This document shows positions 6,096 through 64,000 of a stretch of 64,000 nt of DNA, piece by piece. The notes beneath the pieces were generated by a model, which saw nothing but the letters and a program-made list of their open reading frames with translations, searched no databases and was not told the DNA's origin. The position numbers were made by a program, and so were the translations under genes. The DNA lies in the NCBI GenBank assembly GCA_963716725.1, contig CAVQUB010000010.1:128001-192000 (forward strand), written 5' to 3'. The DNA is from an uncultured delta proteobacterium. GTDB lineage: Bacteria; Myxococcota_A; Polyangia; Polyangiales; Polyangiaceae. Every line of letters begins with the position of its first letter. Position 1 is the stretch's first letter.

Positions 6096-8485
6096 GGCTG
6101 CAATCGGCGCTCGGCGCGGCGGCGCTCTGGGCCTGCTCCGCTCAACAGACGCCCACGGGCTCCCACGGCGTGCAGACCCCAATCGGAGCCGACGGCGGCG
6201 TCGCGCTCTCGAAGGCGGCGCCGGTGGTGATCAAGGACGAGATCTCGATCGCGGAGTTCCAGCCATTGCTCGCTGAGCCAATTCTGGCCAGAGCGCAGAA
6301 GCACATCGACGATGGCAACCACGCGGCCGCGGCTCGCGAGGTCGAAACGCAGATGGGCAAGGTCGAGTCCACGCCTCGAAACGTCGCGCGCTTCCAGATG
6401 TTGCTCGGGCGGCTTCGCGAGATCTCCGGTGACCTGCGGGGCGCGCACGCTTCCTACGAGTTGGCCGCCGCCGAGCGATGGCCCCTCGCGGGATACGCGA
6501 CCTTGGCGGCGGGACGCGTCCTGCTTCGCTCCGGCAAGACCGAGCAAGCCATTGGCGTCCTCGAGCGAGCGCCCAAGGATCAGCCCATCGCCCGGGACGC
6601 CCGCCTGCTCTTGGCCGAAGCGGCGCTCAAGGCCGGCAAGACCGAGATCGTCATCGACGCCTGGCGCGCGCACATCGGGGAGAGGCCCGCCGAGGCCAAC
6701 GACTACGCGCTGCGGCTCGCGGCGCTGCTGCTCGATCGCGCAGGCGCGAAGACCGACGACGCGTCGCTCTCGGACCAGCGCGAAGCGCTGGGTCTAGCCC
6801 GGCGCGTGGCTGCTGAAAACGTCGCCCGGACCACGATCTTGGACCGCGCTCGCAAAGTCGAGAAGCGCGCCCTCGAGGCCCTGCCCCGCGTCGAACAGAA
6901 GCGCTTGGCGCGCCCCACCGCCGAAGAAGAGCTGCTGCGGGTGAAGGCGCTGGTCGAAGCCAAGCTCGAGGCCGACGCCGAGAAGAGCGCCGACGCGCTC
7001 ATCGCTTCGCTCGGCAAGGCAGAGCGCTGGAACGCCACGGGGTGCGAAGCGTCGTTCTGGCGCGCAAAGGCGATTTCGCTCAAGCGCGAGTCGGCGCGCG
7101 CCGCCGAGGCCTTTGACGCCGTGGTCGAGCATTGCAAGGCCGATGATGATCTGCTTGCGCGCTCGCTGTACTTGGCCGGGAAGCACGCTGCGGCCGACGG
7201 CAAGAAGATGCAGGCCGCGCAGCGCTACGGCGAGCTCGAGAAGCTCCTTCCGAAACACCGCCTCGCCGACGACGCGCGCATGGGCGCGGCGCTGGCCTAT
7301 TTCGATCTTGGCATCGAAGCGCGCTTCACCGAACTCTTGTCCACCATCATGGAGGACTACCCCGAGGGCGACATCGTGCTCGACGCGGTGTTCCGCCTCG
7401 CGCTGCGCCGCATCGAGAAGGGCGACTGGCCTGGAGCGGCCAACGTGCTCGGCAAGGTGGCCGCCACCATCGCCAAGAACGACAGCGCCCGCGGCACGGA
7501 GCACAGCGGACGCGAGCGCTACTTCTTGGCGCGCGCTTGGATCGAGAGCGGGGACGCCGAGCGTGGCTACGCGGAGCTCGAGGCCATCGTCCGGGAGCTG
7601 CCGCTCTCCTATTACATGCTGCATGCGTGGTCGCGTCTGGTCGAAAAGGACCCGTTTCGAGCCAAAAACGTGCTGGAGGAGGCCGAGAAGAAGGCCGCCA
7701 CGCAGCCCTTCGCTTTCGAGCACCAGCCGGAGTTCGACAGCCCCGGATTCGCGCGGGCCATGGAACTCTTGCGGCAGGGCGAGCTGGAATTCGCGCGGCG
7801 CGAGATCGAGAGCTTGGGCATCGCCAAGCCCGGAGCGACACCCCGTCTCCTGTGGGGGATCTCGCTGCTCTACGCCCGGGCGGGGTCCGCACGCGACGCC
7901 CACGTCATCGCCCGCGGCATGCTCACGGATTGGCTCGGTCGCTGGCCCGCTGGGGACTGGGCCAAGGCTTGGCAACTCGCTTACCCCAGACCTTATCGCA
8001 ACATCGTGCAGCGCGAGACCAAGAAGAACCTGGTCCCCGAGTCGCTGGTCTATGCCGTGATGCGCGAGGAGAGCGCCTTTGAACCCAGCGCCGAGAGTCA
8101 CGCCGCTGCCTACGGCCTGATGCAGCTGATCGTGCCGACGGCGAAGATCCTGGCCAAGCCGTTGGGGTTGCCGTCGGACGCGTCGAGCCTGAAGCAGCCG
8201 ACCGTGAACATTGCGCTCGGCACCCGGGGTCTCGCCGAGCTCGAGAAGACCTTCTCCCAGAACCCGCTCCTCGCCATTCCGGGCTACAACGCGGGCCCCA
8301 ATCGGCCCCGGCGCTGGCTCCGCGAGCGGCCCCGCGTGGACTTCGATGTCTGGGTCGAGATGATCCCGATCACCGAGACGCGCCGGTACACGAAGCGGGT
8401 TCTGGCAAGTCGCGCGGCTTACGCCTATCTGTACGAGAGGGAGCGCTCTGCCGAGTCCATGGCGCTGCCGGTGCGAATGGAATGA
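6092..8485 (+). CDS. Soluble lytic transglycosylase (Slt-like) lipoprotein with TPR-like superhelix
   Basis: Lipobox LWAC; SLT motifs REESAF, GLMQL, YNAGP, ETRRY. Confidence 0.9.
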   Translation: MRLQSALGAAALWACSAQQTPTGSHGVQTPIGADGGVALSKAAPVVIKDEISIAEFQPLLAEPILARAQKHIDDGNHAAAAREVETQMGKVESTPRNVARFQMLLGRLREISGDLRGAHASYELAAAERWPLAGYATLAAGRVLLRSGKTEQAIGVLERAPKDQPIARDARLLLAEAALKAGKTEIVIDAWRAHIGERPAEANDYALRLAALLLDRAGAKTDDASLSDQREALGLARRVAAENVARTTILDRARKVEKRALEALPRVEQKRLARPTAEEELLRVKALVEAKLEADAEKSADALIASLGKAERWNATGCEASFWRAKAISLKRESARAAEAFDAVVEHCKADDDLLARSLYLAGKHAAADGKKMQAAQRYGELEKLLPKHRLADDARMGAALAYFDLGIEARFTELLSTIMEDYPEGDIVLDAVFRLALRRIEKGDWPGAANVLGKVAATIAKNDSARGTEHSGRERYFLARAWIESGDAERGYAELEAIVRELPLSYYMLHAWSRLVEKDPFRAKNVLEEAEKKAATQPFAFEHQPEFDSPGFARAMELLRQGELEFARREIESLGIAKPGATPRLLWGISLLYARAGSARDAHVIARGMLTDWLGRWPAGDWAKAWQLAYPRPYRNIVQRETKKNLVPESLVYAVMREESAFEPSAESHAAAYGLMQLIVPTAKILAKPLGLPSDASSLKQPTVNIALGTRGLAELEKTFSQNPLLAIPGYNAGPNRPRRWLRERPRVDFDVWVEMIPITETRRYTKRVLASRAAYAYLYERERSAESMALPVRME

Positions 8486-12822: not shown

Positions 12823-14045
12823 AGCGCACCGGGGCTCTGCTCGCGCTCGCGGCCGCGCTCTGGTCGGCGCCGGCTGCTGCGGACGAGGCGCGCACCTACT
12901 TCGACATCGGCGCCAAGGCCTATCAAGCGGGGCGCTACCTCGACGCCGCGCAGGCATTCGACGAGGCGTATCGTCGATCGACTCGGCCGGGCCTGCTGTT
13001 CTCCCTGGGACAGGCGCATCGCATGGAGTACTTCGCGCGCAACGACCCGGCGCGGCTCCGGGACGCGATCCGCTACTACGAGGAGTATCTGGCCAAGGAG
13101 CCCCAGGGCAAGCGCGTGGTCGAGACTACCGAGGCCCTCTCGAAGCTGAAGCCCCTCGCGGCGGCGGCTGGCGAGAAGCCGGATTCGCCGGTCGCGCCTG
13201 CGCCGCCGAGTAAGCCCCGCGTGATGATCTCATCGCCCACGCCGGACGTGAAGGTGACCTTCGATGGGCGCGCGGTGAGCCACCCCTTCATCCAGGAGGT
13301 CGAGCCCGGCAAACACAAGGTCGTGCTCAGCGCGCCGGGCTTCGAGGACTACGTGCGCGAGTTCGTGGTGGACGCCAAGACCGGCGCTCCGCCCCTCGAC
13401 ATCCCGCTGGAAGAACGGCCCGCGATGCTCGTGATTCAAGCGCCCGACGGCGCCGAGGTCGCGATTGACGGCCGTCTGCAGGGAGTCACGCCCTTGCCCC
13501 CGCTGCCCGTGGCCTCGGGCCGACACTTCGTGTCCGTCACCATGAACGGCAAGAAGGCGTTCTCCGAGAGCGTCGTGCTGAAGCGCGGGCAGAGAAAGAA
13601 CCTCCCGGCGGGCCTCGAGAGCACAGGTCAGCGCACGGCGTCGTGGGTCCTGATGGGGATCGGCACCGGGGGACTGGTGGCGGGCGGTGTGCTCGCTGCC
13701 CTGGCCTTGAACGAGCAGAACAAAGCAGAGGATCTGCTGGCCGCGACGAAGGGCCCCGGAAGCCAGGCGCCGGACACCATCGCTCGATACGATGAGCGCC
13801 GTGGGAACCGCGACGACTACCGAATGGCGGCCGTCATCACCGCGGCCGCGGGTGCCGGCGTGGGAACCCTCGGGCTGATGCTCTACGCTTTCGATCCGGC
13901 CAAGGCGCCGCTGCCTCCAGCCGAAGAGGCAGTCCCTGGTCAACCCAAGACGCCCGGCGGTCCCACGGCTCCGAGCATGGAGATCTCACTCGCGCCGCTG
14001 TGGGCGCCGGGCTTTGGCGGCGGCAGTGTGATTGGTCGGTTCTGA
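12819..14045 (+). CDS. TPR + tandem PEGA domain protein
   Basis: Signal peptide, TPR, two PEGA-like repeats (PDGAEVAIDG...G.TP...GRHFV), hydrophobic hairpin, ends GRF; ATGA overlap with upstream gene. Confidence 0.85.
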   Translation: MKRTGALLALAAALWSAPAAADEARTYFDIGAKAYQAGRYLDAAQAFDEAYRRSTRPGLLFSLGQAHRMEYFARNDPARLRDAIRYYEEYLAKEPQGKRVVETTEALSKLKPLAAAAGEKPDSPVAPAPPSKPRVMISSPTPDVKVTFDGRAVSHPFIQEVEPGKHKVVLSAPGFEDYVREFVVDAKTGAPPLDIPLEERPAMLVIQAPDGAEVAIDGRLQGVTPLPPLPVASGRHFVSVTMNGKKAFSESVVLKRGQRKNLPAGLESTGQRTASWVLMGIGTGGLVAGGVLAALALNEQNKAEDLLAATKGPGSQAPDTIARYDERRGNRDDYRMAAVITAAAGAGVGTLGLMLYAFDPAKAPLPPAEEAVPGQPKTPGGPTAPSMEISLAPLWAPGFGGGSVIGRF

Positions 14046-38861: not shown

Positions 38862-49910
<11,049 letters not shown>

Positions 49911-50150
49911 GCGCACACCCTCGAAATATTGGCCCCATGAGGCGGCCGTGTCGAGCCGAGCCTGCCCGCTCGACTCAAGGAAGCTGAGCCACTCTGAAAG
50001 CTACACGGTCGGGGTCCGGTCCTCAAGGCTCGAGCGGACTTTCTGGCGCACTTGGACCTACAGCAATTGTCGAGGTTGTCTGGGCCGGAGCCGCAAGTCT
50101 TGCGGCCGCCCGGTGACGCGGCCCTCGAGGAACGCTAATGCTCGGTCCCA

Positions 50151-50212
50151 GCCTCGTCCGCCTCGTCCGCCTCGTCCGCCTCGTCCGCCTCGTCCGCCTC
50201 GTCCGCCTCGTC
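50151..50212 (+). repeat. 9-bp tandem repeat (GCCTCGTCC) x6.9
   Basis: Six perfect units plus 8/9 of a seventh, ending at the GGAG preceding ATG 50226. Confidence 0.95.
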
Positions 50213-50225
50213 GGAGATCTTGCCC

Positions 50226-51265
50226 ATGGCCAAGCCGCTCGGCCGCCCGAAAGGGCGCTTCACTCAGCATCGCCGCCTCGACGTGGTGCGCGATCTTCTG
50301 GCTCGGCAGCCCCGCGGGCTCACGCTCTACGAGCTCGCCGACGCCATCGACGTGAGCGCGCGCACGATGCGCCGCTACCTGAAAGAGATGGAGCGCGAAG
50401 ACGACCTCGAGAGCCACCAGGTGAAGGGCGGGGGGCGCTGCTCTGGCGCATCCGGCAGAGCGAGATCTCCCGCAAGGTCGAGCTCCGGCGCACGCAGGCC
50501 TACGCGCTGCTCGCGGCGCGTCGTCTGTTCGAGCCGATGCGAGGCTCGGCCCTGTTCGACGAGATCGATCTCGCCATCAACAAGCTGCTCGCGTTCGCCC
50601 AGCGTCCGGGGCGGGGGCCGAACGCGGGGCTCGCCGATGCGCGCCTCGAAGACCGCTTCTTGTACCTGCCCTTCGCGCCGAAAATGTACGCGGAGAAGAC
50701 CGAAGAGCTCGACGACCTGTTCCAGGCGGTCTCCGATCTGCGGCCGCTCAGTCTCGCCTACCGCAGCGCTGCCAAGAAGACCGAAGAGCGCATCACCATC
50801 CATCCCTACGCGTTGGTGCTTCACCGCGACGCCATCTACTGCGTGGGCTTGCACGTCGACAAAGACGAAATCCGCACCTTCGTGCTCGACCGCATGCGCG
50901 ACACGGACTGCGGGGTGTCCGAGCGCTTCACCTTGCCCGATGACTTCAAGATCGACGACTACTTTCAGGGGGAGTTGGGCATCTGGCGCAGCGAGACGCG
51001 GCACAAGGTGGTGATCGATTTCGACGCTCAAGGAGCCGACTACCTGCGCACGCGCAAGGTGCACGGCTCCCAGAAGCTGCAGGCCATCGCGGGTGGCGGC
51101 GTGCGGCTCAGCATGACCCTGGGGAATCTGAACCCCGTGGTGAGCTGGGCGCTCGAGTGGGGACCGCGCGCCAAGGTGGTGGAGCCCCCGGAGCTCGTCG
51201 AGAGGGTGCGCGCAGAGCTGGACCAGGCGCTGGCGCAGTACAAGAAGAAGCGCTCCAAGAAGTAG
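50226..51265 (+). CDS. HTH-WYL-WCX transcriptional regulator (1-nt frameshift at a G-run near 50430)
   Basis: wHTH (LTLYELADAIDVSARTMRRYL); IHPYALV..IYCVG..RTFVLDRM; WALEWGPRAKVVEPPEL. Confidence 0.88.
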
Positions 51266-51297
51266 CGACCGCGGCCGAACGCCTGCCGCTACTTCCC

Positions 51298-51912
51298 TTA
51301 CTTCCCCTGCGCGCGGTAGTGCCGGTAGTACGCCAGCACCTTGCCGACGTAGGCCTGGGTCTCTTCGTAGGGGGGGATGCCGCCGTTGCGGATCACGGCG
51401 TTCTCGCCCGCGTTGTAGGCAGCGACGGTCAGCTCCAGATCGCCGTTGAACATGTTGGCCAGCACTCGCAGGTACCGCGTGCCGCCGAAGATGTTCTGCC
51501 GAGGATCGAAATGATCGGTGACCAGCATGCGCTCCGCGGTCTCGGGGATCATCTGCATCAGCCCGCGGGCGTTGGCTCGGGACACCGCTCGCGGGTCGAA
51601 GTCGCTCTCCACCTTGATCACGGCGCGGACCAGCTCTTCGGGGATCTGATAGAGCGTGGCGGCCTGCCGGATGTACAGGTCGTAGCGCGAGAAGCGCTCC
51701 GGGGAGGTGTCCCGAGGCATGAAGACCGGGATCTTCGGCTTGTCCTTGGCGTAGAGCGCGCTCGACTGGCCCGTGGGGCGGCTCGTGAAGCTCACCACGC
51801 CGTCGGAGTCGACGGTCTTGTAGATGTCCGCCCGCCCGGTGCCGCTGAAGGTGAGCAGGGCCGCGCCGGCGACTGTCGCGGCGAAACGGAGGTGGGTCGA
51901 GGGCAAATTCAC
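51298..51912 (-). CDS. Lytic transglycosylase with N-terminal DUF4124-like domain
   Basis: IYKTVDSDGVVSFT; VESDF, GLMQ, AYNAGE, ETQAYV. Confidence 0.9.
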   Translation of the reverse strand: MNLPSTHLRFAATVAGAALLTFSGTGRADIYKTVDSDGVVSFTSRPTGQSSALYAKDKPKIPVFMPRDTSPERFSRYDLYIRQAATLYQIPEELVRAVIKVESDFDPRAVSRANARGLMQMIPETAERMLVTDHFDPRQNIFGGTRYLRVLANMFNGDLELTVAAYNAGENAVIRNGGIPPYEETQAYVGKVLAYYRHYRAQGK

Positions 51913-52028
51913 GAGCTTGCGCGGATCGTACGGGAAACGCCGGGGCCCGGTCCAAGAATTCCGCCTTCGATAAGTCGGCTCGCGCCGGGTACACTCCGAC
52001 CCCCGGCGCCAAAGGCCCGGGAAGCGCC

Positions 52029-53678
52029 ATGCCCGAACGAGAGCCCCAGACCGATCGCCGCCGGCGCCGCCGCCGCGGCCCACCACAGAAGCCTCAGCAG
52101 TCCGCGGTCGCGGCCATCGCCGCGGCCAAGCCGCCGGTCGACGTGGCGAAGCCCGCCGACGCGCCCCTGTCCGAAGCAGAGGCCGCCGAGATGCGCGTGC
52201 ACCTGCGTTTTCTCAAAGAGCATCGGAAGATCCTCGCGCTCAAGCTGAATGCGGCCGAGGACTTGCTGCTCAACGGCGCGCGGGAGCCCACCCACCGCGG
52301 CGTGTGTCAGCACCTGCTCGACAAAGTCGAGAAGAGCCGGGTCGAGCTGGCCGCGCCGCGACTCGATCTCGGAAGTCGCATGCGCCTGCTCGAGGGCATC
52401 ATCCGCTTCTCGCCGGACATCGCCTACCTGTTGCTCTACCTCGAGAGCCTCAAGGACGCCTCCCGTCCCGATGCAGTGCCGGCGCTCACGGCTGCGCTGC
52501 GGCGCATCGACTTCGAGACGGTGAGCGCGGCACAGATGCGCCGGGTGCTCGACCTGATCGTGGAGCTCACCCGCGAGCGCGATCGACCCCAGCTCCTGTT
52601 CAGCCTGCTCTCGAGCTCGACCTTCCAGAAGGCCTTCGATGCTTCGGCCGAGCGCCTGCCGGACGCGCTTGCCGGCATCGTCGTGCCGCTGCGAGCTGCC
52701 CACGCGGTCATCGTGCGGGGCGCGCCGAACCCCACCGACGCCGACTCGCTGGCGCGCGGTGCGGAGATGCTGCTCTCGCTCCCCGAGAGTGTGCTGAGGA
52801 GCCAGTCGCCAGCGGTCTGTCGCCGGCTCTTCGAGGTCGGCATCGAGCTCGCCACCGAACCTCGGGACAAGTGCACCGCGGGCTTGCGCGTGCTCTTCGA
52901 GGCCATGCCGCGCGGCGATCGCGCCTACGCCGATGCCGCCCTCGCGCTGTCGCGCTGGCTGCTCGCGCGAGGCCTCGAGCGTGACGCCCGGGCGCTCTTC
53001 GCGGTCCTCGCCAAAGACAAGGTCGAGGTCCCACGCCACTGGGTCGTCGCCCTCGACGGCAAGCGCATCGGTGGCATCGGGCTCACGGAGCGACCACCGC
53101 GTGAAGACCCGAACCGGGCGCCCCGGGAGTCGTTCGTGAGCGGTGTGCAGCTGTCCAAGCAGCGGTCCGTGTGGCTGCGCGTCGGCGCGCCCTCCGACGT
53201 CGAGCGCTACGCGCGGGCAGCGGAGCTGTCCAAGAGCATCGCCCTGGTCGGCGTGGCGCCTGTCGTCGAGCACGGGCTCACCGAGCAAGGCCAGCCCTAC
53301 CTCGCGGTGGAGCATCACGGGCGCGCGGCCAACGAGGTCCTGCTCGGCAAATCGGGGACGACCAAGTCCTCGGCCCTCGCCCTCTGCGGCGAAGCGTCGG
53401 CGATCCTCGGGGCGCTGGGCCTGTGCGGGGTGCGGCTCCCCGACGTGCGCTTCCGTCGCTTCGCCGTCGATGACCACGGACGGCTCTGGCTGCGCGACCT
53501 GATGGACGCAGAGCGCGCCGCCGACGCGGCGGAGCACAACACCCGGCTCGCCCTCGAGTTCTGTTTCGATGTGCTGACGCGAGTGCCGCGCTTGGCGCTT
53601 TCGAGCGCCAGCGAAGAGAGCCTGCGCGGGGCGACCGACACCGTCGCGCTCGCGCGGGCCCTGGAAGCGCTCGCCTGA
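52029..53678 (+). CDS. Hypothetical protein: helical N-terminus and degenerate kinase-like C-terminus
   Basis: 549-aa ORF; QGQPYLAVE, GVRLPDVRFRRFAV, LWLRD. Confidence 0.65.
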   Translation: MPEREPQTDRRRRRRRGPPQKPQQSAVAAIAAAKPPVDVAKPADAPLSEAEAAEMRVHLRFLKEHRKILALKLNAAEDLLLNGAREPTHRGVCQHLLDKVEKSRVELAAPRLDLGSRMRLLEGIIRFSPDIAYLLLYLESLKDASRPDAVPALTAALRRIDFETVSAAQMRRVLDLIVELTRERDRPQLLFSLLSSSTFQKAFDASAERLPDALAGIVVPLRAAHAVIVRGAPNPTDADSLARGAEMLLSLPESVLRSQSPAVCRRLFEVGIELATEPRDKCTAGLRVLFEAMPRGDRAYADAALALSRWLLARGLERDARALFAVLAKDKVEVPRHWVVALDGKRIGGIGLTERPPREDPNRAPRESFVSGVQLSKQRSVWLRVGAPSDVERYARAAELSKSIALVGVAPVVEHGLTEQGQPYLAVEHHGRAANEVLLGKSGTTKSSALALCGEASAILGALGLCGVRLPDVRFRRFAVDDHGRLWLRDLMDAERAADAAEHNTRLALEFCFDVLTRVPRLALSSASEESLRGATDTVALARALEALA

Positions 53679-53775
53679 TCGGCGCGCCTACTCCGAGTCG
53701 GTCAGGTAGGTGTAGCTTCGCAGCGCCTGCTCGTAGTGCTGCATGAGCGTGCGCATCTGCTCGTTGGTCAGGCGT
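53439..53775. repeat. 337-bp direct repeat, left copy (3' end of 52029-53678 plus duplicated 3' end of speA)
   Basis: Matches 60602-60938 with 8 mismatches by manual alignment. Confidence 0.95.
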
Positions 53776-53798
53776 TCGGCACGAGATCGCCTCGATGC

Positions 53799-55298
53799 TC
53801 ACGAACCCCCGACCCCACCCTTGCTGGGGTGGTGCTCGTCGTAGAGCGATGGGTACGCGCACTTCGAGGCGGCGTTCACGATGCGGTAGCCGATGAGCGG
53901 GTCGGACTGGTCGTCGTGGTCGAACGAGTCGCTGTAGTCGAGGAACCCGAACCACAGCTCGTCCTGGTAGCGGAGGAGCTGGAGGTTTCGGGCGTCGAGA
54001 CCCGGCGAGAGCGACGTGTCGCAAGTGTCGGTGCGCCAACACGACTCAAACGAGTGGGTGACCACCGGCCGCTGCTCCGCGAGTGCGTCGCCTTCGATTT
54101 CGAACGCGTCGATGTGCGCGTGGATCTTGCCCATCATCATCCACCCCTTCGAGGTTCGCGAAAGCACCCGCTGGCGCATGCCTCCCGCAGGCTCGGGGAT
54201 GACAATTGCGGGGGTCTCGGGCACGAAGCCGTTGAGACGTTGCACGTAGCTGTCGTTGTCGATGTTCTGTCCCATCCAGCCCAGCACCACCTGCTCCCCG
54301 TCCAGAGCAACCGCGGGCCACCCGGAGAACTTCGACGACTCTGGCGGAACTCCCTGCGCTGCGACCGCCCTGGCGAAATACGGGTCGTCGGGAAAGAGCG
54401 GCGTCCCGTCCCGCAGGTGGCCGCTGAGGCTCACGCCGCTGCCTCCGGGGTAGGCGAACACCGTCGTGCCCGTCACGGGATCGGTCGCGACGGAGAATGC
54501 GTCTTGCACCACGGCGGAGGACGCGACGACGTCGGGCCCGGAGAGCAACGTGCCGTCCGGGGAGAGCCGAACCAAGCGAATGCCCCAGTCTTGCAGGCCG
54601 GGGTTGCTGAGCCCGAAGTGCAACGCGAAGGCCTCGCCGTCCCAGGCGATCTCCCAGAGGAAGAGCTCCGAGGTCGGCCAGGGTGGAGTCCACACCGTTT
54701 GCTTCTCGGGTTGGTCGAGACGGGTGAGAAGGATCTTTTGGATTGGATCCGCGGCGAGTGATGGTCGGTACCCAATTCCAATGGCAGTTGTCCCGTCGGG
54801 CGAAACCGCCACGTCTGCAACTGCACCGCTCAAAACCCATGGCGAGATCCCTTCGGGGAATACGTCGTAGATGGCGTGGCCAAAGGTCGCGCCGCTGGAT
54901 CCGGGGAACGTAGTCAGGACCATGTGCGCCGTGAGTCGCTCGGAGTCGCTCGGGTCGACACTGTAGGCACTCCACACCATGTGGAGACCGGTCGCGTCCC
55001 TCCAGAACGGGTGCACGGGGAGATGGGTGCTCCTGATCGACACCGAGGCCCAGGTGCGTGTGGGCGGGAGCATGGAGACACTCACCCTGTACTCCACGCA
55101 ATCGCTGCTCGCCTCACCACCGGTTCCGCCCCCGCCTGCGTCGCACACGCAGGGCTCACCCGGCTCGGCGCCAGCTTCTTCGCCGTCGCTGCACCCGATC
55201 AGGCTCAGCGCAAGCAGCGCGACGTAGGCCCAGCGCGCGAGCCCGGCCGGGTCGTCGCAGGCGCGCGTTGCGCCACTCCCTGCCGCGGGTGGCTTCAA
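53799..55298 (-). CDS. Putative lipoprotein, beta-rich, unknown function
   Basis: Lipobox LIGC; TTG start overlaps upstream stop (TTGA). Confidence 0.65.
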   Translation of the reverse strand: MKPPAAGSGATRACDDPAGLARWAYVALLALSLIGCSDGEEAGAEPGEPCVCDAGGGGTGGEASSDCVEYRVSVSMLPPTRTWASVSIRSTHLPVHPFWRDATGLHMVWSAYSVDPSDSERLTAHMVLTTFPGSSGATFGHAIYDVFPEGISPWVLSGAVADVAVSPDGTTAIGIGYRPSLAADPIQKILLTRLDQPEKQTVWTPPWPTSELFLWEIAWDGEAFALHFGLSNPGLQDWGIRLVRLSPDGTLLSGPDVVASSAVVQDAFSVATDPVTGTTVFAYPGGSGVSLSGHLRDGTPLFPDDPYFARAVAAQGVPPESSKFSGWPAVALDGEQVVLGWMGQNIDNDSYVQRLNGFVPETPAIVIPEPAGGMRQRVLSRTSKGWMMMGKIHAHIDAFEIEGDALAEQRPVVTHSFESCWRTDTCDTSLSPGLDARNLQLLRYQDELWFGFLDYSDSFDHDDQSDPLIGYRIVNAASKCAYPSLYDEHHPSKGGVGGS

Positions 55299-58200
55299 AG
55301 CTCGAGCCCCTCGGCCTCGGCCCACGCCGCGAGAGTTCGCTCCAGCTCCAACGCTTCTTCAAGGGCCTCTCGCGCCTTGTGTTTGTTCGGAGTGTGCAGC
55401 AGCGCCCAGGCCTTGGTCTTCTCGGCGGCGATTTTGTTCAGTGAGATCAACGCTCCCAGCGCGCGCTTGTCGTGCTTCTGAGCCAAGAGCACCAGCATCT
55501 TCGACCTCGACTTGGCGACATGGATCAGCGAGCCCGCGATCAGCGCTCGCGCTGCGTGGTGCTCGCCGCCGTCGAGTCGGTCGAGAGCGCGCTCCTCGAG
55601 CGCGATCGCCTCGTCGACTTCGGCCTGGGCCGCGACCCGCAGAGGCAGCATGACGGGAGGGGACTCGTTACCCGCGCCGTCTTTCACCTTGACCCAGATC
55701 GCCGCTGCGGGTTGATCCGCCAGCGTCAGTGTGGGGCCAGAAGAAAACGGCTGCCAGGTCGCGCCCTCGAAGTCGGAGCGCAACGCGATCATCATCGACG
55801 GCGTTCCGGTGCTCGCGATCCCGTCGCATGCCGGTCCGTGACCGCGATGTCGACTTGGCTCGTCGGTGGCAGCGAGCCGCAGCTCCACTCGGCGCGTCCG
55901 CGTCCAGGTGCGCCCATCGGCGAGCTGGACGGTCACCTCCGGAGCGATTGGATCCCGCCGTGGGATCACGCAGGTGGGGGCGGACCAAGGGCCGACGTGT
56001 CCAGACACCGACACGCGGGTCCGGAAGCAGCTCGATTGGTCGTTCGGCGAGGCCAGCTCGATGGTCGTGGCGCCGGCCAGCGGCCGCTCCGCCATCACGG
56101 CGAACGGAGCGGTGCGCGTGGGCGCGTTCGCGACCATCAGCGTCGCCCCGGAGACGCCTGGCGGAGCCAGCGCGGTCACGATCACGGAGTCGTTGCACGC
56201 GGTGACCACTGGTTGGACGTCGAGCCGCACGTCGTCGCGGCCGTCGTGCGGATCCAGCCCGAGCGCGGCTTCCGAGCCATCGCTCTCGCCGCCGCCGTCG
56301 CTGTCCGGTTGCAGCGGATCGGTGTGAGCAACGAATTCTTCGTGACTGGGCAGTCCGTCGCCGTCCGGATCTGCCTCTCCGTCCGCGACGCCCGGGTTGG
56401 TGCCCTTCTGGAGCTCCCACCAATCCGGCATCCCGTCGCCATCGGTGTCCGCGCCGTCGTGCAGCGCGGTGACGTGCCAGCGCTCGCGCTTGAAGGGGTG
56501 GCCGGCCGTCGAAAGACCGGTGGCCACCACCCGGATCCGATACACGCCGGCCTCGCTGCCGCCGAAATAGCGCGCTGCGTAGACCCCATCTCCCTCCCTC
56601 CCGTCCCCGTGGTCGCCATCGTCGAACAGCGTGAGCGACGCCAGTGCTCCGCTCGGGCTCTCGACCTCCGCCTTCACGAACACACCGGCCAGCGGCAGTG
56701 TCTCCAGCACCGCCGCGCGGAGCATCAAGTCGAGCCCGACCCAACTGCTGTTCTCCGTCGCGTCGGCGGTCGCTTCGATGGCTCGCTCGTGCGTCGGGTG
56801 CACGCGCGAGATGAGACTGATGGCCGCACCGCGCAGCGCTGCTTCGACGAAGGTGGAGGGTTGCCCGCCAGGCAGCGGCACGTACACCGGGGGAGCGGTG
56901 AATCCGGAATGCTCCCACTCCCAGGTCCACTGCCCGGCGGGCGGCAGAGCGACCTTGAAGACCGAGCCGGGCGTCTGCTGAACCGGCGGGATGGCGACCC
57001 CGTTCGGAGCGACGAGACGAAGTCGGGACGCGAGATCGACCGGATCGCCCAGGGTCGAGTACACGGAGACGAGCAGCTCCTTCGCTCCGGGCTCGACCTG
57101 GATCGGCGGCAGCTCGGTCGGATCGGGGGTCAGGGGTCGCGTCGCGAGCACGCGTTCGTGACCGCTCGCCCGGTTCATCGCGCTGCGGAACGCGTCTGCG
57201 AACTCCAGCCGGTGGAACGTCTCGAGGCTCGGGACGGCCACCGGCGGATCGTCATGGCTATAGGCGAACACCCCGCCACCGATCTCGGCGAGGTTCCCCA
57301 GCTCGACCGTGTCCGCGTCTGCTCCAATTGCGATCGCCGATACGATCGGGACTCGTTGTTTTGCGGCCTTGCGCTTCCAGTAGGCCAAGTTCCCACTGAA
57401 CCACGGCAGGTTGTCGCTCGGGTCGGGATCCGTGTCACCGGATGGCAGCATCGAACCGTCCGTGTTCGCTTCGGGCTCGAAGTCCTGGAGATAGTACCGG
57501 CGTGGCTCCCAGCCCGCGTTGTTCTTCCCATCCGAGAGCACGCTCATGTGCAGCAACACGTCGGTGGGGGGCGCGCTGCCGTACGCGAGCGCTAGGTTGG
57601 ACTGCGCCTCGAGGACGCCGTCGCCGATGGACGTCCAGCCGGGAGGAGCCGTGATCAGATCGACCGCGGCGTTGAAGACGCCACGCCCGAGGGGCGTCAT
57701 CTTCAGGTAGGGCACGCTCATTCCCCCGATCAGGGTCTGGGCGTCGTTGTTGAAGGTGACGAGCCCCACTTCGTCGCTCACGGTCATCGCTTCACCCAGC
57801 AGCTTGGCGGCGTCTTTCATCGCCTGCAGCTTGCCCAGCGAGTTCATGCTGCCGCTTTTGTCGAGCACGAACTGGGTCACGAGTCGCGTGCTCGCGTTCA
57901 TGGCCAGCGCACCGCTCTCGGTGTCCGAGACGATCCCGATCCCGAACTCTTCCGCGGACACGACCAGATCCAAGGCGCCCGGCAGCGTAGACGGATAGAA
58001 CGCCGGCGGCACTTCGCCGAGCGCCCAGTAGAGTCCCGAGCCCAGGTTGGTGATGGTGAAGTCCGTGCCGTTCACCAGCGCGCAGGCCGGCGCCTTCGGG
58101 CCCGCGCACCCCGGCGTTCGGAGCTTGAAATTGCTGGGAGCCAAGCCGCTCAGCGGCTCGTTGTTCTCGTCACGAACCACGAACTGCGCCACGAACGACC

Positions 58201-60340
58201 GCGGGGCCTGGGGATCTCCGATCTGGGCCGGTCGCACCGAGAGCGGATCGAGGATCTCGAGTCGCGGATCGACCTCGCCGATCAGCCACTTGAACGACGC
58301 GGCCTTGCGCCCGGCGCTCGCCAGCACGAGCACCTCGTCGTAGGTCCCCACCGGGACCGGGATGTCGAACGTGCCCGTCGCGTCGAGGGGACACATGCCC
58401 GTCTTAGCCGGCTTCTTGCCGTCGGGGTCGATGTTGCAGCCCTCGACGATCATCGGGACGCCGTCCGTCTTGACCAGAAACAGGCGGAAGCGCGGCTGGG
58501 TGGACTTGGTCGCGATCAATCGTACGCGCGCCAGACCCAGACCCTTGCCGGGATGGAACGACAGCAGCGTCGTTCCAAACGGCTGCAGGGTGATCTCGCT
58601 GTCGCTGGCGAAGCCTTGCCCGGGCAAGAGCGATACGCGCGAGGGAGTGCACTTGTTCCCGGTGCATACGGCGTAGTTGTCCAGCTCGCGTTTGGCGCGG
58701 CGCAGGTAGTCCTTGCCGATCCCCACCAGATCGCCGGGGACCTCGAGCTTGCCGCCGGCCGCGGCTTTCCACGTGGACAGCGGCGGTTCGGGCTTCGGCG
58801 TCTTGGGCACGAGGGCGCTCCCCGCCCCCGCGTTCGCGTCGCCCACCCACTGGAAGAACCAGCGCAGATCGTCGGTCGAGTAGTCCTTCAGCAGCGCGGC
58901 GGTGTGCAGGTCGAGGATCACGGCTTCCAGACCGCGGCCAAGCTCCTTGGTGAGCACGGCGTCCACCACGTCGAGGGCCGGCTTCGCGGGCGCAGCCTTG
59001 AGGCCCTGAAATACGTGCCCGAGGAAGTCGGCGCCCTCGTCGGAGCGGCGGAAGCCGAGGGCCTTGAACGGGTCGGCCAGGATTGCCGACTCGCTCGACG
59101 CCGGGTGCGCGGCGGTGCCTGTGGGCATCGAATATTGCTCGATCGCGTAGCGCCAGAACACGCTGCCGACGTAGCTCCAGTTCACCGGATCGCTGTTCGG
59201 CGTCAGCAGCCAGTGATTGGTGTTCCCGACGCTGCCGATGGTGTTCTCACCGAGCTTGCGCGACGACACGCACTGCTCCGGCTTCACGCCGGGGTAGTTG
59301 AACAGACACATGAAGGCGTCCACGCCGACCGGCGCCGTTTCGGCGAAGGAGACGTCGAACTGCTGGGTCGTCCCGTACGCCCGCTGCCATGCACCCTGCA
59401 AGTTGTGGAAGAACTCGTGCCCCATGAAGGCGAGCTGCACGCCTGCAGCGACAGACAGGTTTTGGACTCCGGAGAGATCGGTCCTGAGGAAGAACTGTCC
59501 GAGCCCTCCGTGGGCGGCACCGTCGTCGGCGAACGCCCAGACCAACGTCGGGCAGTATGACCCGCTGCACGCCTTGCTCGAGCCGTTGGCCCAGACCGGG
59601 GGCGTGATCTTGGGGGATGGCAAGGACGGAAAGAGCCCTGACTCTTGCCAATCTGCGATGCCGGGCATCCGCTCCACCACGAACTTAGTGCCCGCCGCGT
59701 CCACACACGCCTGCGTCGCGTTGGCGCCGCTCTTGTTGCCCTGCGTGCAGACGTCCCCAAGGAGCCCGCCGAACGGATCCTTCACCGTGCTCGGCACGGC
59801 CAGCACCTTGAACTTCGGCACGCCGTCCAAGGGCTGTGCGACCGGACACCAGCCGCCGACGTTGAGCGCGCTGAGCGTGCTCTCTTCGTTGACCTTGAGG
59901 AACAGGAACGTGCCGGCATTGTTCGCGTCGTCCCAGTCGAAAGGGAGCCCCGGGGTCTGCTCTGTCGCTCCGGGCACGCTGAACGACTTGACCCACGTCG
60001 CGTTTGCCGGCTTGCCGCCGGGCTTGGCCGTGTCGTCGAAGACCAACCAGTCGAGATCCGGTACCGACTCCGACGCGGGACACTTGACCTTGCCGCTCGG
60101 GGACACGCGACAGATCTCGAGCCGGGTGGTCGCCTGCAGGGCGGCTGCCTTGTCCGGATCATCGGCGGCGCTGCGGGTCACCCAGCCGTACTGGATGCGC
60201 ACGCTCCGCTGCGCCGCCGTCGCCCCGAGCACTCCGGTTCCGCTTTGTGGCGACGCGACGCCGATGCAGCGCGACACCTGCGCCCGCAGCGGCTCGGCCG
60301 CGCTCACCGGCGCCGCCCAGAGCGCAAAACCAAGAGCCAC
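55295..60340 (-). CDS. Large secreted HExxH metallopeptidase-vWA protein, CLCA-like (true start probably ~60503)
   Basis: HEFFH; VLDKSGSM...TSIG...SDG; LFDDGDHGDGREGDGVY; DTDGDGMPDWWE Ca-binding repeats. Confidence 0.78.
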   Translation of the reverse strand: MALGFALWAAPVSAAEPLRAQVSRCIGVASPQSGTGVLGATAAQRSVRIQYGWVTRSAADDPDKAAALQATTRLEICRVSPSGKVKCPASESVPDLDWLVFDDTAKPGGKPANATWVKSFSVPGATEQTPGLPFDWDDANNAGTFLFLKVNEESTLSALNVGGWCPVAQPLDGVPKFKVLAVPSTVKDPFGGLLGDVCTQGNKSGANATQACVDAAGTKFVVERMPGIADWQESGLFPSLPSPKITPPVWANGSSKACSGSYCPTLVWAFADDGAAHGGLGQFFLRTDLSGVQNLSVAAGVQLAFMGHEFFHNLQGAWQRAYGTTQQFDVSFAETAPVGVDAFMCLFNYPGVKPEQCVSSRKLGENTIGSVGNTNHWLLTPNSDPVNWSYVGSVFWRYAIEQYSMPTGTAAHPASSESAILADPFKALGFRRSDEGADFLGHVFQGLKAAPAKPALDVVDAVLTKELGRGLEAVILDLHTAALLKDYSTDDLRWFFQWVGDANAGAGSALVPKTPKPEPPLSTWKAAAGGKLEVPGDLVGIGKDYLRRAKRELDNYAVCTGNKCTPSRVSLLPGQGFASDSEITLQPFGTTLLSFHPGKGLGLARVRLIATKSTQPRFRLFLVKTDGVPMIVEGCNIDPDGKKPAKTGMCPLDATGTFDIPVPVGTYDEVLVLASAGRKAASFKWLIGEVDPRLEILDPLSVRPAQIGDPQAPRSFVAQFVVRDENNEPLSGLAPSNFKLRTPGCAGPKAPACALVNGTDFTITNLGSGLYWALGEVPPAFYPSTLPGALDLVVSAEEFGIGIVSDTESGALAMNASTRLVTQFVLDKSGSMNSLGKLQAMKDAAKLLGEAMTVSDEVGLVTFNNDAQTLIGGMSVPYLKMTPLGRGVFNAAVDLITAPPGWTSIGDGVLEAQSNLALAYGSAPPTDVLLHMSVLSDGKNNAGWEPRRYYLQDFEPEANTDGSMLPSGDTDPDPSDNLPWFSGNLAYWKRKAAKQRVPIVSAIAIGADADTVELGNLAEIGGGVFAYSHDDPPVAVPSLETFHRLEFADAFRSAMNRASGHERVLATRPLTPDPTELPPIQVEPGAKELLVSVYSTLGDPVDLASRLRLVAPNGVAIPPVQQTPGSVFKVALPPAGQWTWEWEHSGFTAPPVYVPLPGGQPSTFVEAALRGAAISLISRVHPTHERAIEATADATENSSWVGLDLMLRAAVLETLPLAGVFVKAEVESPSGALASLTLFDDGDHGDGREGDGVYAARYFGGSEAGVYRIRVVATGLSTAGHPFKRERWHVTALHDGADTDGDGMPDWWELQKGTNPGVADGEADPDGDGLPSHEEFVAHTDPLQPDSDGGGESDGSEAALGLDPHDGRDDVRLDVQPVVTACNDSVIVTALAPPGVSGATLMVANAPTRTAPFAVMAERPLAGATTIELASPNDQSSCFRTRVSVSGHVGPWSAPTCVIPRRDPIAPEVTVQLADGRTWTRTRRVELRLAATDEPSRHRGHGPACDGIASTGTPSMMIALRSDFEGATWQPFSSGPTLTLADQPAAAIWVKVKDGAGNESPPVMLPLRVAAQAEVDEAIALEERALDRLDGGEHHAARALIAGSLIHVAKSRSKMLVLLAQKHDKRALGALISLNKIAAEKTKAWALLHTPNKHKAREALEEALELERTLAAWAEAEGLEL

Positions 60341-60459
60341 CGCGATCGCGGCTGTCGAGCTGCCGGCGTTGAGGCCCGACGAGCGCGAGCCGCCGCGGCT
60401 GCGAGTCCGCCACGAACGGTCAAGCCACCGCGCACCGGCAACACGGCACGAAACGTGCT

Positions 60460-60478
60460 CTGCCTGCCTGCCTGCCTG
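60460..60478. repeat. Tetranucleotide repeat (CTGC)4+
   Basis: ctgcctgcctgcctgcctg. Confidence 0.8.
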
Positions 60479-60601
60479 AGTTCACCCCTTGCTCCCCCTC
60501 CATCACGCCACCTCCACCTGTGATGCGACCAGAGTCGAATCATTCGGTCAAGGCGTCGTGGGCAGACGCGCGCGAGCGGCAGAAAACGGCTCGCGACCTG
60601 G

Positions 60602-60938
60602 CCCGACGTGCGCTTCCGCCGTTTCGCCGTCGATGACCACGGACGGCTCTGGCTGCGCGACCTGATGGACGCAGAGCGCGCCGCCGACGCGGCGGAGCAC
60701 AACACTCGGCTCGCCCTCGAGTTCTGTTTCGATGTGCTGACGCGAGTGCCGCGCCTGGCGCTCTCGAGCGCCAGCGAAGCGAGCCTGCGCGGGGCGACCG
60801 ACACCGTCGCGCTCGCGCGGGCCCTGGAAGCGCTCGCCTGATCGGCGCGCCTACTCCGAGTCGGTCAGGTAGGTGTAGCTGCGGAGCGCCTGCTCGTAGT
60901 GCTGCATGAGCGTGCGCATCTGCTCGTTGGTCAGGCGT
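60602..60938. repeat. 337-bp direct repeat, right copy (duplicated 3' fragment of 52029-53678 plus true 3' end of speA)
   Basis: Offset 7163 from left copy. Confidence 0.95.
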
Positions 60939-62771
60939 CCGCTCTGGACCGCGCGCTCGGCTTGCTTGCGCACCGCCTCGACCATGCCCTCCGGCTGATA
61001 CTCCACGTAGCGCAGCACGTCGGCGATGCTGTCGCCCTTGACCACGTGCCGAACCTCGTAGCCCTCTTCGGTGAGGCGCACGTGCACGGCGTTGGTGTCA
61101 CCGAAGAGATTGTGCAAGTCCCCGAGGATCTCTTGGTATGCGCCGTTCAGGAACATGGCCATGAAGTAGGGCTCGTCCGGCCGGTAGTCGTGGACCTCGA
61201 GCACCTGCTTGTCCTCCTCGACGTCGATGAAGCGATCGATCATGCCGTCGCTGTCGCAGGTGAGATCGGCCAAGCGAGCGGTCACCGTCCGGCTGCTCGT
61301 CGAGCCGGTGGATGGGCATGATCGGAAAGAGCTGATCGATGGCCCAGATGTCCGGCGCCGACTGGAACAGGCTGAAGTTGCAGTAGTAGATGCTGCTCAT
61401 CGTGCGGTCGAGATCCCAGAGCTCTTCGGGCACGAACTTGAGCTTCTTGACCTTGCTCTGGATCTTCTCGCAGCAGTTCCAGAATAGGCGTTCGGCGCCG
61501 GCGCGCTCGCGCAGGCTGAGGTAGCCGTACTTGAACAGGTTCTGCGCTTCTTCTTTGGCCTGCGTCGCGTCGTGCCAGGACTCTTGGACGTTCTTTGCGC
61601 TGATGCCCTTGTAGGTCTCGTAGAGATCCTTGAGCAGCCGGTGGGCTTCGGGCTTGGGCTCCACCGGGGCGCCAAAGCGCACCTCGTTCACGCCCACCAC
61701 CTCGAAGACCAGCATCGAATGGTGCGCGGCGACGGCCCGCCCGCTCTCGCTCACCAGCGTCGGGCACTCGACGTCGGACTTGTTGCAGGCGGCCTGGACG
61801 TGGGCGACCACGTCGGCGGCGTACTCCTCGAGGGTGTAGTTCCTCGAAGCGTGGAAGTCCGTCTTCGATCCGTCGTAGTCGATGGCGAGGCCGCCGCCCA
61901 CGTCGAGGTAGCCCATCTTGCAGCCCATCTTCGCCAGCTCGGTGTAGATGTTCGCGGCCTCTTGGATCGCGTTCTTGATCGGGATGATGCTGGAGATCTG
62001 GCTGCCGATGTGGAAGTGCAGGAGCTGCAGGCAGTCGAGCATGTCCTTGGCGGCCAGGCGGTCCACCAGCTCGACGATCTCGGTCATGGTCAGGCCGAAC
62101 TTCGCGCGGTCTCCCGCCGAGTTCGCCCAGCGCCCGACGCCCTTGGCGCTGAGCTTGCTGCGCACGCCGAGCAGGGGCCGGATCCCCAGCTTCTCCGTGG
62201 CACGGAACACGTGGTCGAGCTCTTCGATGCGCTCGAGCACGACGATCACCTGCTTGTCGAACTTCTGCGCGACCAGCGCGGTCTCGATGTAGTGCAGGTC
62301 CTTGTAGCCGTTGCAGATGATCAGGCCGCCGACGTCCTGCATTGCCGCCAGGGCGATCAAGAGTTCGGGCTTGCTGCCGGCTTCGAGCCCGAATTGCCAC
62401 GGGCGTCCGAACTCGACGACGTCTTCGATCAAGTGCCGTTGCTGGTTCACCTTGACCGGGAACACGCCGCGATAGATGCCTGGGTACTCGTACTCGACGA
62501 TGGCGCGCTCGAAGGCCTCGTTGATGTGCTTGATGCGGTGTTCGACGATGTCGCTGAAGCGGATGAGCAGCGGCAGGTCGAGCCCACGAGCCTCGAGGTG
62601 CTGCACCAACTCGAACAGGTTGATGTTGCGGGGCCGGGTCGGATCCGGCGCGACCTGCACATGACCCTCGTCGCTCACGCTGAAGTAGGGCAGACCCCAA
62701 CCTTGGATTTGGTAGAGTTGCGCGCTCTTCTGCGGGCTCCAGGGCTCTCCGTTTTCGACCATCTCGTTCAA
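60851..62771 (-). CDS. speA: Biosynthetic arginine decarboxylase (1-nt frameshift near 61290)
   Basis: FPVKVNQQ, EAGSKPEL, HFHIGSQ, DVGGGL, ESGRA, DLTCDSDG, GAYQEILGDLHNLFG. Confidence 0.95.
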
Positions 62772-62881
62772 CTTGCCTCCCGGGCGGCGTCGACACGCTC
62801 GTGACCACTTTCGTTCGCCGGACGAGCAGGCGAAGCAAACGTCGGAATCGGGCGCATCGCAAGCGATAATCCGGCGGCGGG

Positions 62882-63870
62882 TCAGCCCGGCGCCCAGAGC
62901 GTCGTTGGTAGGCCGCCGCGTTTCCACAGGGCCAGCAGGTCCATCAGACAGCGCGACGGTGATGTGCACCAGGAAGCCCGAGTAGATGCTCCGCGTGCGC
63001 ATGGCCAGGCTCCCGAGCACGACGCCCGCCACGATGGCGCCGTGGGCCTCGAGGTAGGGCTTGCCGTAGTGGATCATGCAGTAGGGAACCGCCATCACGA
63101 AGATGGCGCTGGCCCCCATGCTCTTTCGGAGCGCGCCCACTATCCAGCCACGGAAGAAGGCCTCGAGCGCCAGGAACTGCACGAAGTAGATGGCCTCCCA
63201 GGTCAGGAAGTCGAACCAGCTCCGGGAGCTCTGCTTGTAGAACGGGTAGTAACCGCCGAAGTCGGGCTGCGACGCCACCAGCAGCATGGCCGGCAGCACG
63301 AAGGCCAGACACAGCCCGTAGATCCAGAGGTGGCTGAAGAAGCCTCTCACCCGAAAGCCCATGTCGAGCAGCTTGTCGTCTGGGGAACAGCAGCTTCCAC
63401 AGGGGCAGGGGGATGATCACGTAGCCGAGGACGCGGCTCGAGACCCACCAAGCGTAGCCGTACAGCTCGTCGTACTTCGCGAGCTTCACGAAGCTCCAGC
63501 CGCCGCGTTCCAGATCGGCGAGCATGGGGCGGACCAGCTGGTCGTAGATCTGGCGACCGCCGTAGTACTCTTGAAGCGTCAGCACGACCGCGGCGATGAG
63601 CAGACAGGCCGCGGGCCGCAGATCGTGCTTGCCGGCCTGGACGAGCAGGGCGCGATGCTCGGCGGCGTCGCGATCGAGCTCCCGCCAGGTGTCGCGAAAG
63701 AAGCGCCAGATCAGCGGGGCGATCAGGCACAGGATGGGCAGGGGCAAGAGCGCCTTGATCGGCGGGTAGCCGAGCAGCGCGTCCCACCAGGACCGGAGCG
63801 CCAGCGGAGCGAGCGGCAGCGTCAGCCCATCGGACAGCTCTGGTCCCAGCGTGGCGAGCCCGTCGAGCAT
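62882..63870 (-). CDS. CPBP (Abi/CAAX protease II) family intramembrane metalloprotease (frameshifts near 63380 and 62946)
   Basis: LEAFFRG, HYGKP..E, TRSIYSGFLVH. Confidence 0.85.
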
Positions 63871-63880
63871 GATGGGGTGC

Positions 63881-64000
63881 TCAGCCGTTGCCTCGCGCGA
63901 TTTCGGCGGCGGCTTCGAGCCGTGCCACCGATCGCTCGCGACCGAGCACGCTCATCACCTCGAACAGCCCGGGGCTCGCGCTCCGGCCGGTGAGGGCGAC
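63881..64000 (-). CDS. gltX: Glutamate--tRNA ligase, 3' end
   Basis: Manual translation VALTGRSASPGLFEVMSVLGRERSVARLE...stop. Confidence 0.85.
   Translation of the reverse strand, partial: VALTGRSASPGLFEVMSVLGRERSVARLEAAAEIARGNG

Follow-up and report, generated by a model that had tools for sequence, protein, structure and literature searches.

A two-gene cassette between duplicated ends of two convergent genes in a Polyangiaceae genome, with no recombinase gene detected in or beside it

In the genome of an uncultured delta proteobacterium assigned to the Polyangiaceae (NCBI GenBank assembly GCA_963716725.1), two convergent genes, geneA and the arginine decarboxylase gene speA, are separated by a cassette of two genes that is bounded on each side by a 337-bp direct repeat of the geneA and speA ends. 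The window analyzed here is a stretch of 64,000 nucleotides (contig CAVQUB010000010.1, positions 128,001 to 192,000 of the forward strand), and coordinates given without a contig or locus name refer to it. The assembly (G000) is like a metagenome-assembled genome (MAG), with 7,886,190 bases in 35 contigs, a completeness of 84.47, and a contamination of 3.9. We compared it with six genomes of the same genus (G001-G006) and with Logan contigs from four public sequencing runs (X1, X5, X6, and X10; one run each from four studies), of which X6 and X10 are wastewater runs from two independent studies. The public-run data are assembled contigs, and rare forms are dropped by contig assembly. We also refer to L028, a locus in the MAG record of a relative that was reached via the 508-amino-acid (aa) protein of the cassette. 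The features at the locus, from left to right, are as follows.

52029-53678, plus strand: geneA, a complete open reading frame (ORF) of 549 aa, with its last 79 codons within the left repeat.
53439-53775, no strand assigned: left repeat copy, from the repeat comparison and a zero-mismatch X5 contig over 53190-53637.
53688-53775, minus strand: detached, non-functional speA 3' end (stop and last 28 codons), from translation, with two synonymous differences from the working copy.
53776-53798, no strand assigned: junction stretch of 23 nt from the left repeat to the stop of the 508-aa gene; blastn homology to L028 ends at 53798.
53799-55325, minus strand: cargo gene 2, an ORF for a rare protein of 508 aa.
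55295-60340, minus strand: cargo gene 1, for a protein of 1,681 aa with VWA, choice-of-anchor X, and bacterial TSP3 repeats (Pfam VWA and TSP3_bac; NCBIfam choice_anch_X).
60341-60601, minus strand: 261 nt upstream of cargo gene 1, of which 65 nt (60494-60558) form a conserved element.
60602-60938, no strand assigned: right repeat copy, linked to the cargo side by an X1 contig and to the speA side by an X5 contig.
60602-60841, plus strand: detached, non-functional geneA 3' end (79 codons and stop), with the empty-site allele at 4 of 6 variable sites.
60851-62762, minus strand: speA, for biosynthetic arginine decarboxylase (Pfam Orn_Arg_deC_N, Arg_decarb_HB, and Arg_decarbox_C), with the start near 62762 in our reading.

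The two repeat copies are 337 nt each, lie 7,163 nt apart from start to start, and enclose 6,826 bp. They differ at 8 ungapped positions (97.6% identity) and are the only two copies in the whole assembly when all 7,886,190 bases are searched, so that the pair is not a product of chance. Each copy consists of the last 79 codons of geneA with the stop, a spacer of 9 nt, and the last 28 codons of speA with the stop. Seven mismatches are synonymous, five in the geneA tail (left/right: codon 476, CGT/CGC; 477, CGC/CGT; 505, ACC/ACT; 522, TTG/CTG; 524, CTT/CTC) and two in the speA tail (CGA/CGC and CTG/CTC); the sole non-synonymous mismatch is at geneA codon 530 (GAG/GCG, E/A). The longest block that is identical between the copies spans 100 bp (53618-53717). 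A ninth difference, T at 53776 and C at 60939, is followed by two more matching bases, which sets the right edge of the repeat at 53775 +/- 3. The original prediction, made by reading the letters of the window, had described this pair; we recovered its coordinates exactly, its mismatches letter for letter, and its make-up of a 79-codon upstream-gene tail, a short spacer, and a speA tail of about 28 codons.

Comparison with relatives reveals that the two gene ends were once joined. In G001, G002, G003, and G005, genes for a WYL regulator and an SLT transglycosylase, geneA, and speA are consecutive, with geneA and speA tail to tail, and in these four of the six congeners, where geneA and speA abut, the 337-bp repeat is single-copy. 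On G002, homology to the window stops at 53774 and resumes at 60602, and the two aligned pieces overlap by 326 bp; the repeat is therefore single-copy there. Both of the remaining congeners are without geneA: 135 bp separate the SLT gene of G004 from the speA stop (L020 705-840), and G006 has two truncated speA tails. From this gene content, the SLT-speA interval is a variable spot within the genus. A much closer empty site was found in X6 and X10, where one contig each joins 53689 to 60853 and skips 7,163 bp, in a strain that is ~96-99% identical to G000. A false joint made by collapse of the repeat could be ruled out, since a single contig spans the whole repeat in each run. Read depth over 53755-55158 is almost nil in X6 and low (1-6) in X10. 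In the other two runs, contigs agree with the window without mismatch. Specifically, a 1,868-nt contig of X1 runs with 0 mismatches from the cargo (58887) into the right copy (60754), and X5 has zero-mismatch contigs over 53190-53637 and 60781-61154, the latter of which links the right copy to speA; the empty-site joint was not found in the contigs of X1 or X5. The insert thus has on either side a direct copy of sequence that the empty site holds once and without interruption, as in Campbell-type integration, and we conclude that the cassette was inserted into a formerly contiguous tail-to-tail junction. The empty site that the original prediction had looked for is present in four congeners and in a near-identical strain from two studies. 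A cassette shared by all relatives would have spoken against an insertion, and G001, G002, G003, and G005 are empty.

The two copies do not look like one sequence that decayed in place. A random base change in the repeat codons is synonymous with a probability of 0.22-0.31, and neutral decay of one copy per part predicts 36-47% synonymous changes, under which 7 or more of 8 has a P of 0.004-0.025. Simple decay in place would thus be an unlikely source of the synonymous excess, as had been argued at the outset. Furthermore, the right copy carries the letters of another strain. At 53543, 53592, 53600, and 53617, the empty-site strain shares T, C, C, and C with the right copy, where the left copy has C, T, T, and A, so that right copy and empty-site strain agree at 4 of the 6 variable sites of the geneA tail. 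The empty-site strain is not listed as differing from the left copy at 53456 and 53459, in contig difference lists that omit sites near the ends of aligned pieces. When polarized by four outgroup species, 53459 and 53543 are derived in the right copy, and 53592, 53617, and 53721 are derived in the left copy. Based on these comparisons, the two repeat copies are different alleles.

The divergence of geneA extends beyond the repeat. Over its 3' part (52917-53689) the window differs from the empty-site strain at 29 of 773 sites (3.75%), compared with 28 of 2,584 (1.08%) in three flanking pieces (Fisher P 4e-6). There are 11 differences within 53378-53435 alone, inside this tract. The divergent stretch at 52917-53689 looks like a recombination tract, and since it begins well outside the repeat, the left copy is the end of a divergent geneA tract. 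Allelic copies fit a derivation from two molecules, an incoming arm and the resident site, and later allelic replacement gives the same pattern. The original prediction had taken the copies for functional alleles of two related genomes: the right copy does bear another strain's letters, and the step from there to two genomes is weakened because later replacement would give an equal result. We considered the empty-site strain as an excision product of the cassette, given its apparent agreement with the left copy at 53456 and 53459 and with the right copy further on, and rejected this as unnecessary, those two letters being ancestral or ambiguous in the outgroups; that geneA of the empty-site strain differs from G000 just left of the repeat also weighs against such an origin.

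Both host genes survive the insertion. The geneA product has no Pfam or NCBIfam match and a weak PADLOC match to a PD-T4-6 kinase-like protein (aa 389-503, E 1e-6). Its full-length orthologues in G001, G002, G003, and G005 share 70-77% aa identity, and geneA is a conserved gene that is dispensable, as it is entirely missing from G004. In the window as deposited, the Orn_Arg_deC_N, Arg_decarb_HB, and Arg_decarbox_C domains of speA are split over two frames. The window has an extra base at 61287 that none of the four runs has in its contigs, zero-mismatch ones included, and the speA orthologue of G004 is intact in a single frame. The frameshift is therefore an assembly indel and not the mark of a pseudogene, and speA is whole. 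With this correction, the claim that both host genes are complete holds. The case illustrates that indels in long-read MAGs can pass for pseudogenes. Upstream of speA, a Rce1-like CAAX-protease gene is without a C-terminal frame and stop in the window (~62880-62960). This CAAX-protease-like gene runs into the speA ORF, such that 61098-63416 forms one open frame, and G004 has a separating stop. A second assembly indel probably lies near 62950, judging from the reading frames.

The insert of 6,826 bp is filled by its two minus-strand genes. The larger product scores above the NCBIfam cut-off for choice_anch_X, and its matches to CglD and MtsD fall far below theirs; it is surface- or adhesin-like, with domains of a kind found in myxobacterial surface proteins. 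The 508-aa protein has no Pfam, NCBIfam, or PADLOC match. Among 5.8 billion proteins it has 10 homologues besides itself, which, where named, all come from Myxococcales or Polyangiaceae metagenome bins. A metagenome scan for its gene returned one 1,850-nt contig only, and a family-level search of 60 other genomes gave only weak matches, in 3 of them and at E values no better than 2.5e-5. Its AlphaFold 2 model is all-beta with a poor predicted local distance difference test (pLDDT) score of 57, and has generic propeller matches at template modeling (TM) scores of 0.3-0.44; the protein is probably a beta-propeller according to this low-confidence model.

Nothing in the cassette points to an enzyme that would move it. 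Pfam searches found no integrase or transposase in the 10 ORFs in and around the insert or in 24 further ORFs of the window, and NCBIfam and PADLOC found no recombinase in the cargo, as the original prediction had stated for the inside of the cassette. There was no tRNA or tmRNA in 45000-64000 and no Rfam family in 51000-63000. No pair of terminal inverted repeats joins the cargo ends among the 25 of 55 inverted pairs listed, and no break in base composition occurs at the insert edges. A promoter scan returned 0 promoter-like sites; a terminator scan returned 7 sites, against 3.6 +/- 1.9 expected, with none at a junction. The neat extent of the cargo from promoter to stop suggested retro-insertion of an operon transcript, an idea that we dropped as there was no reverse transcriptase or other sign of it.

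The cargo has relatives at other places. G000 has no second copy. G005, with its empty geneA/speA site, carries a 73% homologue of the large gene on a different contig; in the rest of the genus there are either no counterparts or only paralogues of ~1,700 aa at 31-34%. L028 matches the order of the G000 cargo, with the 65-nt upstream element (60494-60558, 89% identity to L028 9078-9142), a large gene that has an internal deletion, and the 508-aa gene; the stretch at 53776-53798 has no homology to this locus in blastn. On G000 contig C2, the syntenic counterparts of the L028 flanks lie 40 bp apart (C2:21860/21900), so that this site is empty in G000; it is likewise uninterrupted in the five congeners compared (G001-G004 and G006). 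Finally, an X6 contig is 98% identical to the cargo over 57985-60604 and continues into unlike sequence at both ends. It departs from the window sequence at 60604 rather than entering the repeat, a right break at most 3 nt from the repeat edge. Because homologues sit at other loci in G005 and L028, the operon is a rare accessory unit that occupies differing places in close relatives without a mobility gene of its own.

The cassette is not unique in its architecture. G000 was compared with itself, and six repeat pairs were then checked for Pfam content and synteny. The scan that had been proposed for other cassettes with duplicated gene ends turned up one further clean case on contig C5, one partial case, and three unclear ones. 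The relevant sites, including two in relatives, are as follows.

C5:565912-566190 / 570054-570332 (L043 2513-2791 / 6655-6933): second clean cassette, with a 279-bp repeat and 1 mismatch.
C5:198856-199341 / 201557-202042 (L042 2557-3042 / 5258-5743): partial case at the tail of a protein-O-mannosyltransferase (PMT)-like gene, with a 486-bp duplication and 10 mismatches.
L028 12264-12339 / 13069-13144: insert between 76-bp copies with 1 mismatch, single-copy in G000 (C2:22593-22666).
L016 9178-9636 / 10820-11279: insert in G006 at the same speA end, with ~460-bp direct repeats (94-96%) and a truncated speA tail.

The second clean cassette is an integrase-less insert of 3,863 bp with two orphan ORFs at a divergent (head-to-head) Mur-ligase/MTHFR junction. 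It has an 8-bp stutter at the right joint, its repeat is single-copy and its site empty in 5 of 5 congeners, and the best relatives of its 571-aa ORF are 36-39% identical and belong to other genera. The 486-bp pair is the 3' end of the PMT-like gene and brackets a 458-aa orphan ORF; we did not accept it as a clean case because the right flank is syntenic in congeners and the left flank is not. The pairs on C6, C12, and C21 were set aside as complex or without synteny. The 729-bp insert of L028 encodes a DUF6036/AbiEii-like nucleotidyltransferase. The original prediction had also raised the possibility of different cargo at the same site, which is seen in G006: a PemK/MazF-like toxin gene, preceded by a weak ribbon-helix-helix (RHH) ORF, lies at the speA end within other repeat boundaries, and geneA is absent there. 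No terminal motif is shared among the inserts compared. The G000 cassette is thus one member of a recurring pattern.

Two other repeats came to light. Within the window, a 2.9-kb direct repeat of 95% identity (42007-44916 / 46056-48954; C10:170007-172916 / 174056-176954), with copies 4,049 bp apart, lies inside giant genes rich in MopE-type cysteine-rich metal-binding motifs. At L042 4660-4770 (C5 ~200960-201070), ~100 nt match dozens of places at 70-85% in each of five congeners, and are either a dispersed repeat or a repeated coding motif.

How the cassette arrived can be judged from its structure, the empty site, the lack of mobility genes, and the allelic copies, and because of these we favor, tentatively and at a little under an even chance, an insertion-duplication scar left by the general recombination of the host rather than by a site-specific enzyme. 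DNA from a related strain would have carried the two-gene operon (promoter region, 1,681-aa gene, and 508-aa gene) and, linked to it, a junction of geneA and speA tails; this incoming junction copy would have recombined with the resident one. The event may have been a single crossover of a circularized fragment or its linear equivalent, with one homologous end and one end-joined end. Its product would be junction copy, cargo, and junction copy, in which both resident genes keep full reading frames and the 337-bp pair stays a substrate for RecA-type deletion of the cargo. The crossover probably fell in the identical block at 53618-53717; a donor allele and a host allele that recombine there account for all 8 letters. 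We infer from the scar that the molecule had a homology arm and was circular, where the crossover took place, and that the insertion is reversible. Several points weigh against this explanation. Among assembled public contigs we saw no circle, no excision product, and no donor with the cargo abutting geneA codon 471. A circle with a contiguous junction needs at least one earlier illegitimate joint as well as a donor with a disrupted geneA. The allele pattern would arise equally from duplication in place followed by replacement of the geneA 3' part, and the divergent tract (3.75% versus 1.08%) does extend to the left of the repeat. The second clean case, with its near-identical repeats, 8-bp stutter, and foreign cargo, is more like direct capture, and the 76-bp duplication of L028 is short for efficient homologous integration. 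Moreover, read depth is present in the bin of the left junction (53775/53776) in X1, X5, and X10, but no contig among the pieces listed bridges this junction, which stands as the assembly has it. This absence, the confirmed indel at 61287 with the probable one near 62950 in a MAG-like assembly, and the presence of the empty-site strain in other samples could also be taken to mean that the contig is strain-chimeric or mis-threaded, for example through placement of a separate molecule of cargo and repeat in an empty site. We regard such an artefact as very improbable. Zero-mismatch contigs run from the cargo into the right copy (X1, 58887-60754) and from the right copy into speA (X5, 60781-61154), and the X5 contig over 53190-53637 bears the left copy's own letters. 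X1 and X5, which show no empty-site joint, also yield pieces that break beside two variant sites (60754/60755 and 60780/60781) in the right copy, as expected for a two-copy repeat, whereas the contigs of X6 and X10 run through a single copy. In addition, the only other known site of a cargo homologue, that of L028, is uninterrupted in G000. The original proposal of single-crossover integration is upheld in its insertion at a formerly contiguous junction and its allelic copies, and as a mechanism is plausible, with in-place duplication followed by allelic replacement fitting almost as well.

That competing account, which we consider possible and less probable than an even chance by some distance, is non-homologous duplicative capture in one step. 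A 337-nt staggered break or a switch of replication template would have been end-joined to a homology-free fragment and filled in, duplicating the target in the manner of a very long target-site duplication, so that the copies were identical at birth; later recombination with a cargo-less strain would have overwritten the 3' part of geneA and, as far as the border of the cargo, the left copy. Duplication and insertion were one event on this view, as the insert lies precisely at the joint of the duplication. Unrelated cargo with unrelated ends is found in the same setting elsewhere, with duplications of varied length (279, 76, and ~460 bp), and in the young C5 case there is 1 mismatch in 279, an 8-bp stutter, and cargo foreign to the genus. 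A possible 3-nt microhomology (CCC) lies at the right joint, with the X6 contig matching the cargo as far as 60604. The divergent geneA tract must on this account stop inside the left copy, beyond which the cargo offers no homology, and it does. G000 also encodes Ku (C30:15568-16065, 159.5 bits, above the cut-off) and, 5 kb away, a LigD polymerase domain (C30:20899-21624, 213.1 bits against a cut-off of 214.7), and capture of heterologous DNA by nonhomologous end joining (NHEJ) has been demonstrated in S. meliloti (PMC6379672). Yet in the literature at hand we found no earlier case of bacterial end joining that duplicated hundreds of bases of its target; the word "duplication" occurs 0 times in the accessible text of PMC6379672. 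One-step capture also requires an extra event, allelic replacement, to account for the synonymous bias, and both changes unique to the non-functional right fragment (53456 and 53459) are synonymous. A remnant of an integrase-dependent island that brought replacement gene ends, with the integrase since deleted or acting in trans, seems highly unlikely to us. Direct repeats that duplicate 3' ends with mainly synonymous differences are a hallmark of prophages integrated in the 3' ends of protein genes, and the topology here is the same. Nevertheless, the 6,826 bp are taken up by two ORFs, with no space for a recombinase or remnant of one, and the scanned ORFs of the window include no integrase. 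Neither an end motif nor a core is common to the inserts at the four repeat-bounded sites that we compared. In G006, the repeats around the insert at this gene end have other boundaries, and homologues of the cargo occur elsewhere without such repeats.

Whichever route was taken, this is a well-documented natural gain of genes at a compact junction without a mobility gene, with a conspecific empty site and with arms resolved as alleles. What varies among strains in this instance is a giant VWA/TSP3 surface-type protein. If such events are common, they would be an overlooked route by which accessory genes move in and out beside important genes without damage, and island finders that seek integrases would miss them. 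A broader proposition, which we hold to be rather doubtful, is that Polyangiaceae, and perhaps prokaryotes at large, harbor recombinase-free mobile cassettes gained by an enzyme-unspecific duplicative capture with target duplications of 76-490 bp. If this is true, both neighbors, even essential ones, would stay intact, and the cargo could exit as a circle and re-enter relatives via the captured arm.

Several known systems resemble the cassette in part. Transposon target-site duplications likewise place direct copies of the target on both sides of an insert, and are typically a few bases long. The G000 cassette differs in its 337-bp duplication, far longer as the original prediction had remarked, and in the lack of a transposase and of terminal inverted repeats (of the 25 inverted pairs listed out of 55, none joins the cargo ends), and we rejected a transposon or insertion sequence on these grounds. 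In E. coli, e14 and phage 21 integrate in the 3' end of icd and bring a replacement end. They share with our locus a duplicated gene end, mostly synonymous differences, and an intact host gene; they need an integrase and a short att core, whereas the cassette has no recombinase or shared core and both neighboring gene ends are duplicated. The minimal mobile elements of Neisseria are alternative cassettes between conserved genes that are exchanged by flanking homologous recombination. Here too an inter-gene site is integrase-less and variable in content among strains: within the genus it holds the G000 cargo, a toxin-antitoxin pair in G006, no geneA in G004, and nothing in four congeners. The Neisseria elements differ in having no duplication of flanking gene ends. 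NHEJ capture of heterologous DNA at chromosomal breaks (Dupuy et al., PMC6379672) is comparable as an integrase-free and homology-free gain, and G000 has Ku and a LigD polymerase domain; in the accessible text of that study, the insertions were at an engineered I-SceI cut and no long target duplication is reported. Homology-facilitated illegitimate recombination, in which a homologous anchor and an illegitimate joint would give the same product from a linear donor, differs in that the accounts available typically report deletion of recipient DNA, and, as far as the accessible text of PMC3240628 goes, its true form is far rarer than single-crossover duplications.

The closest parallel is Campbell-type insertion-duplication. 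Single crossover of a non-replicating circle that bears a chromosomal fragment is the routine method of insertion in Myxococcus. The likeness extends to direct flanking copies of sequence present once in the empty site, the range of arm lengths, the lack of need for a site-specific enzyme, and the predicted reversibility by recombination between the copies. Among recombinants from E. coli conjugation, 56 of 60 had duplications, of 109-950 bp in the 14 sequenced, and single crossovers involving circular molecules were the authors' explanation, according to the accessible part of the report (PMC3240628). In titles and abstracts, we found no description of a natural form of this integrase-less architecture. 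The cassette of G000 differs from the Campbell-type product in being natural, with no vector or replicon, in an arm that spans the ends of two convergent genes, both of which survive, and in copies that are two alleles 2.4% apart. It is a natural variant of a known recombination product, and not a new system.

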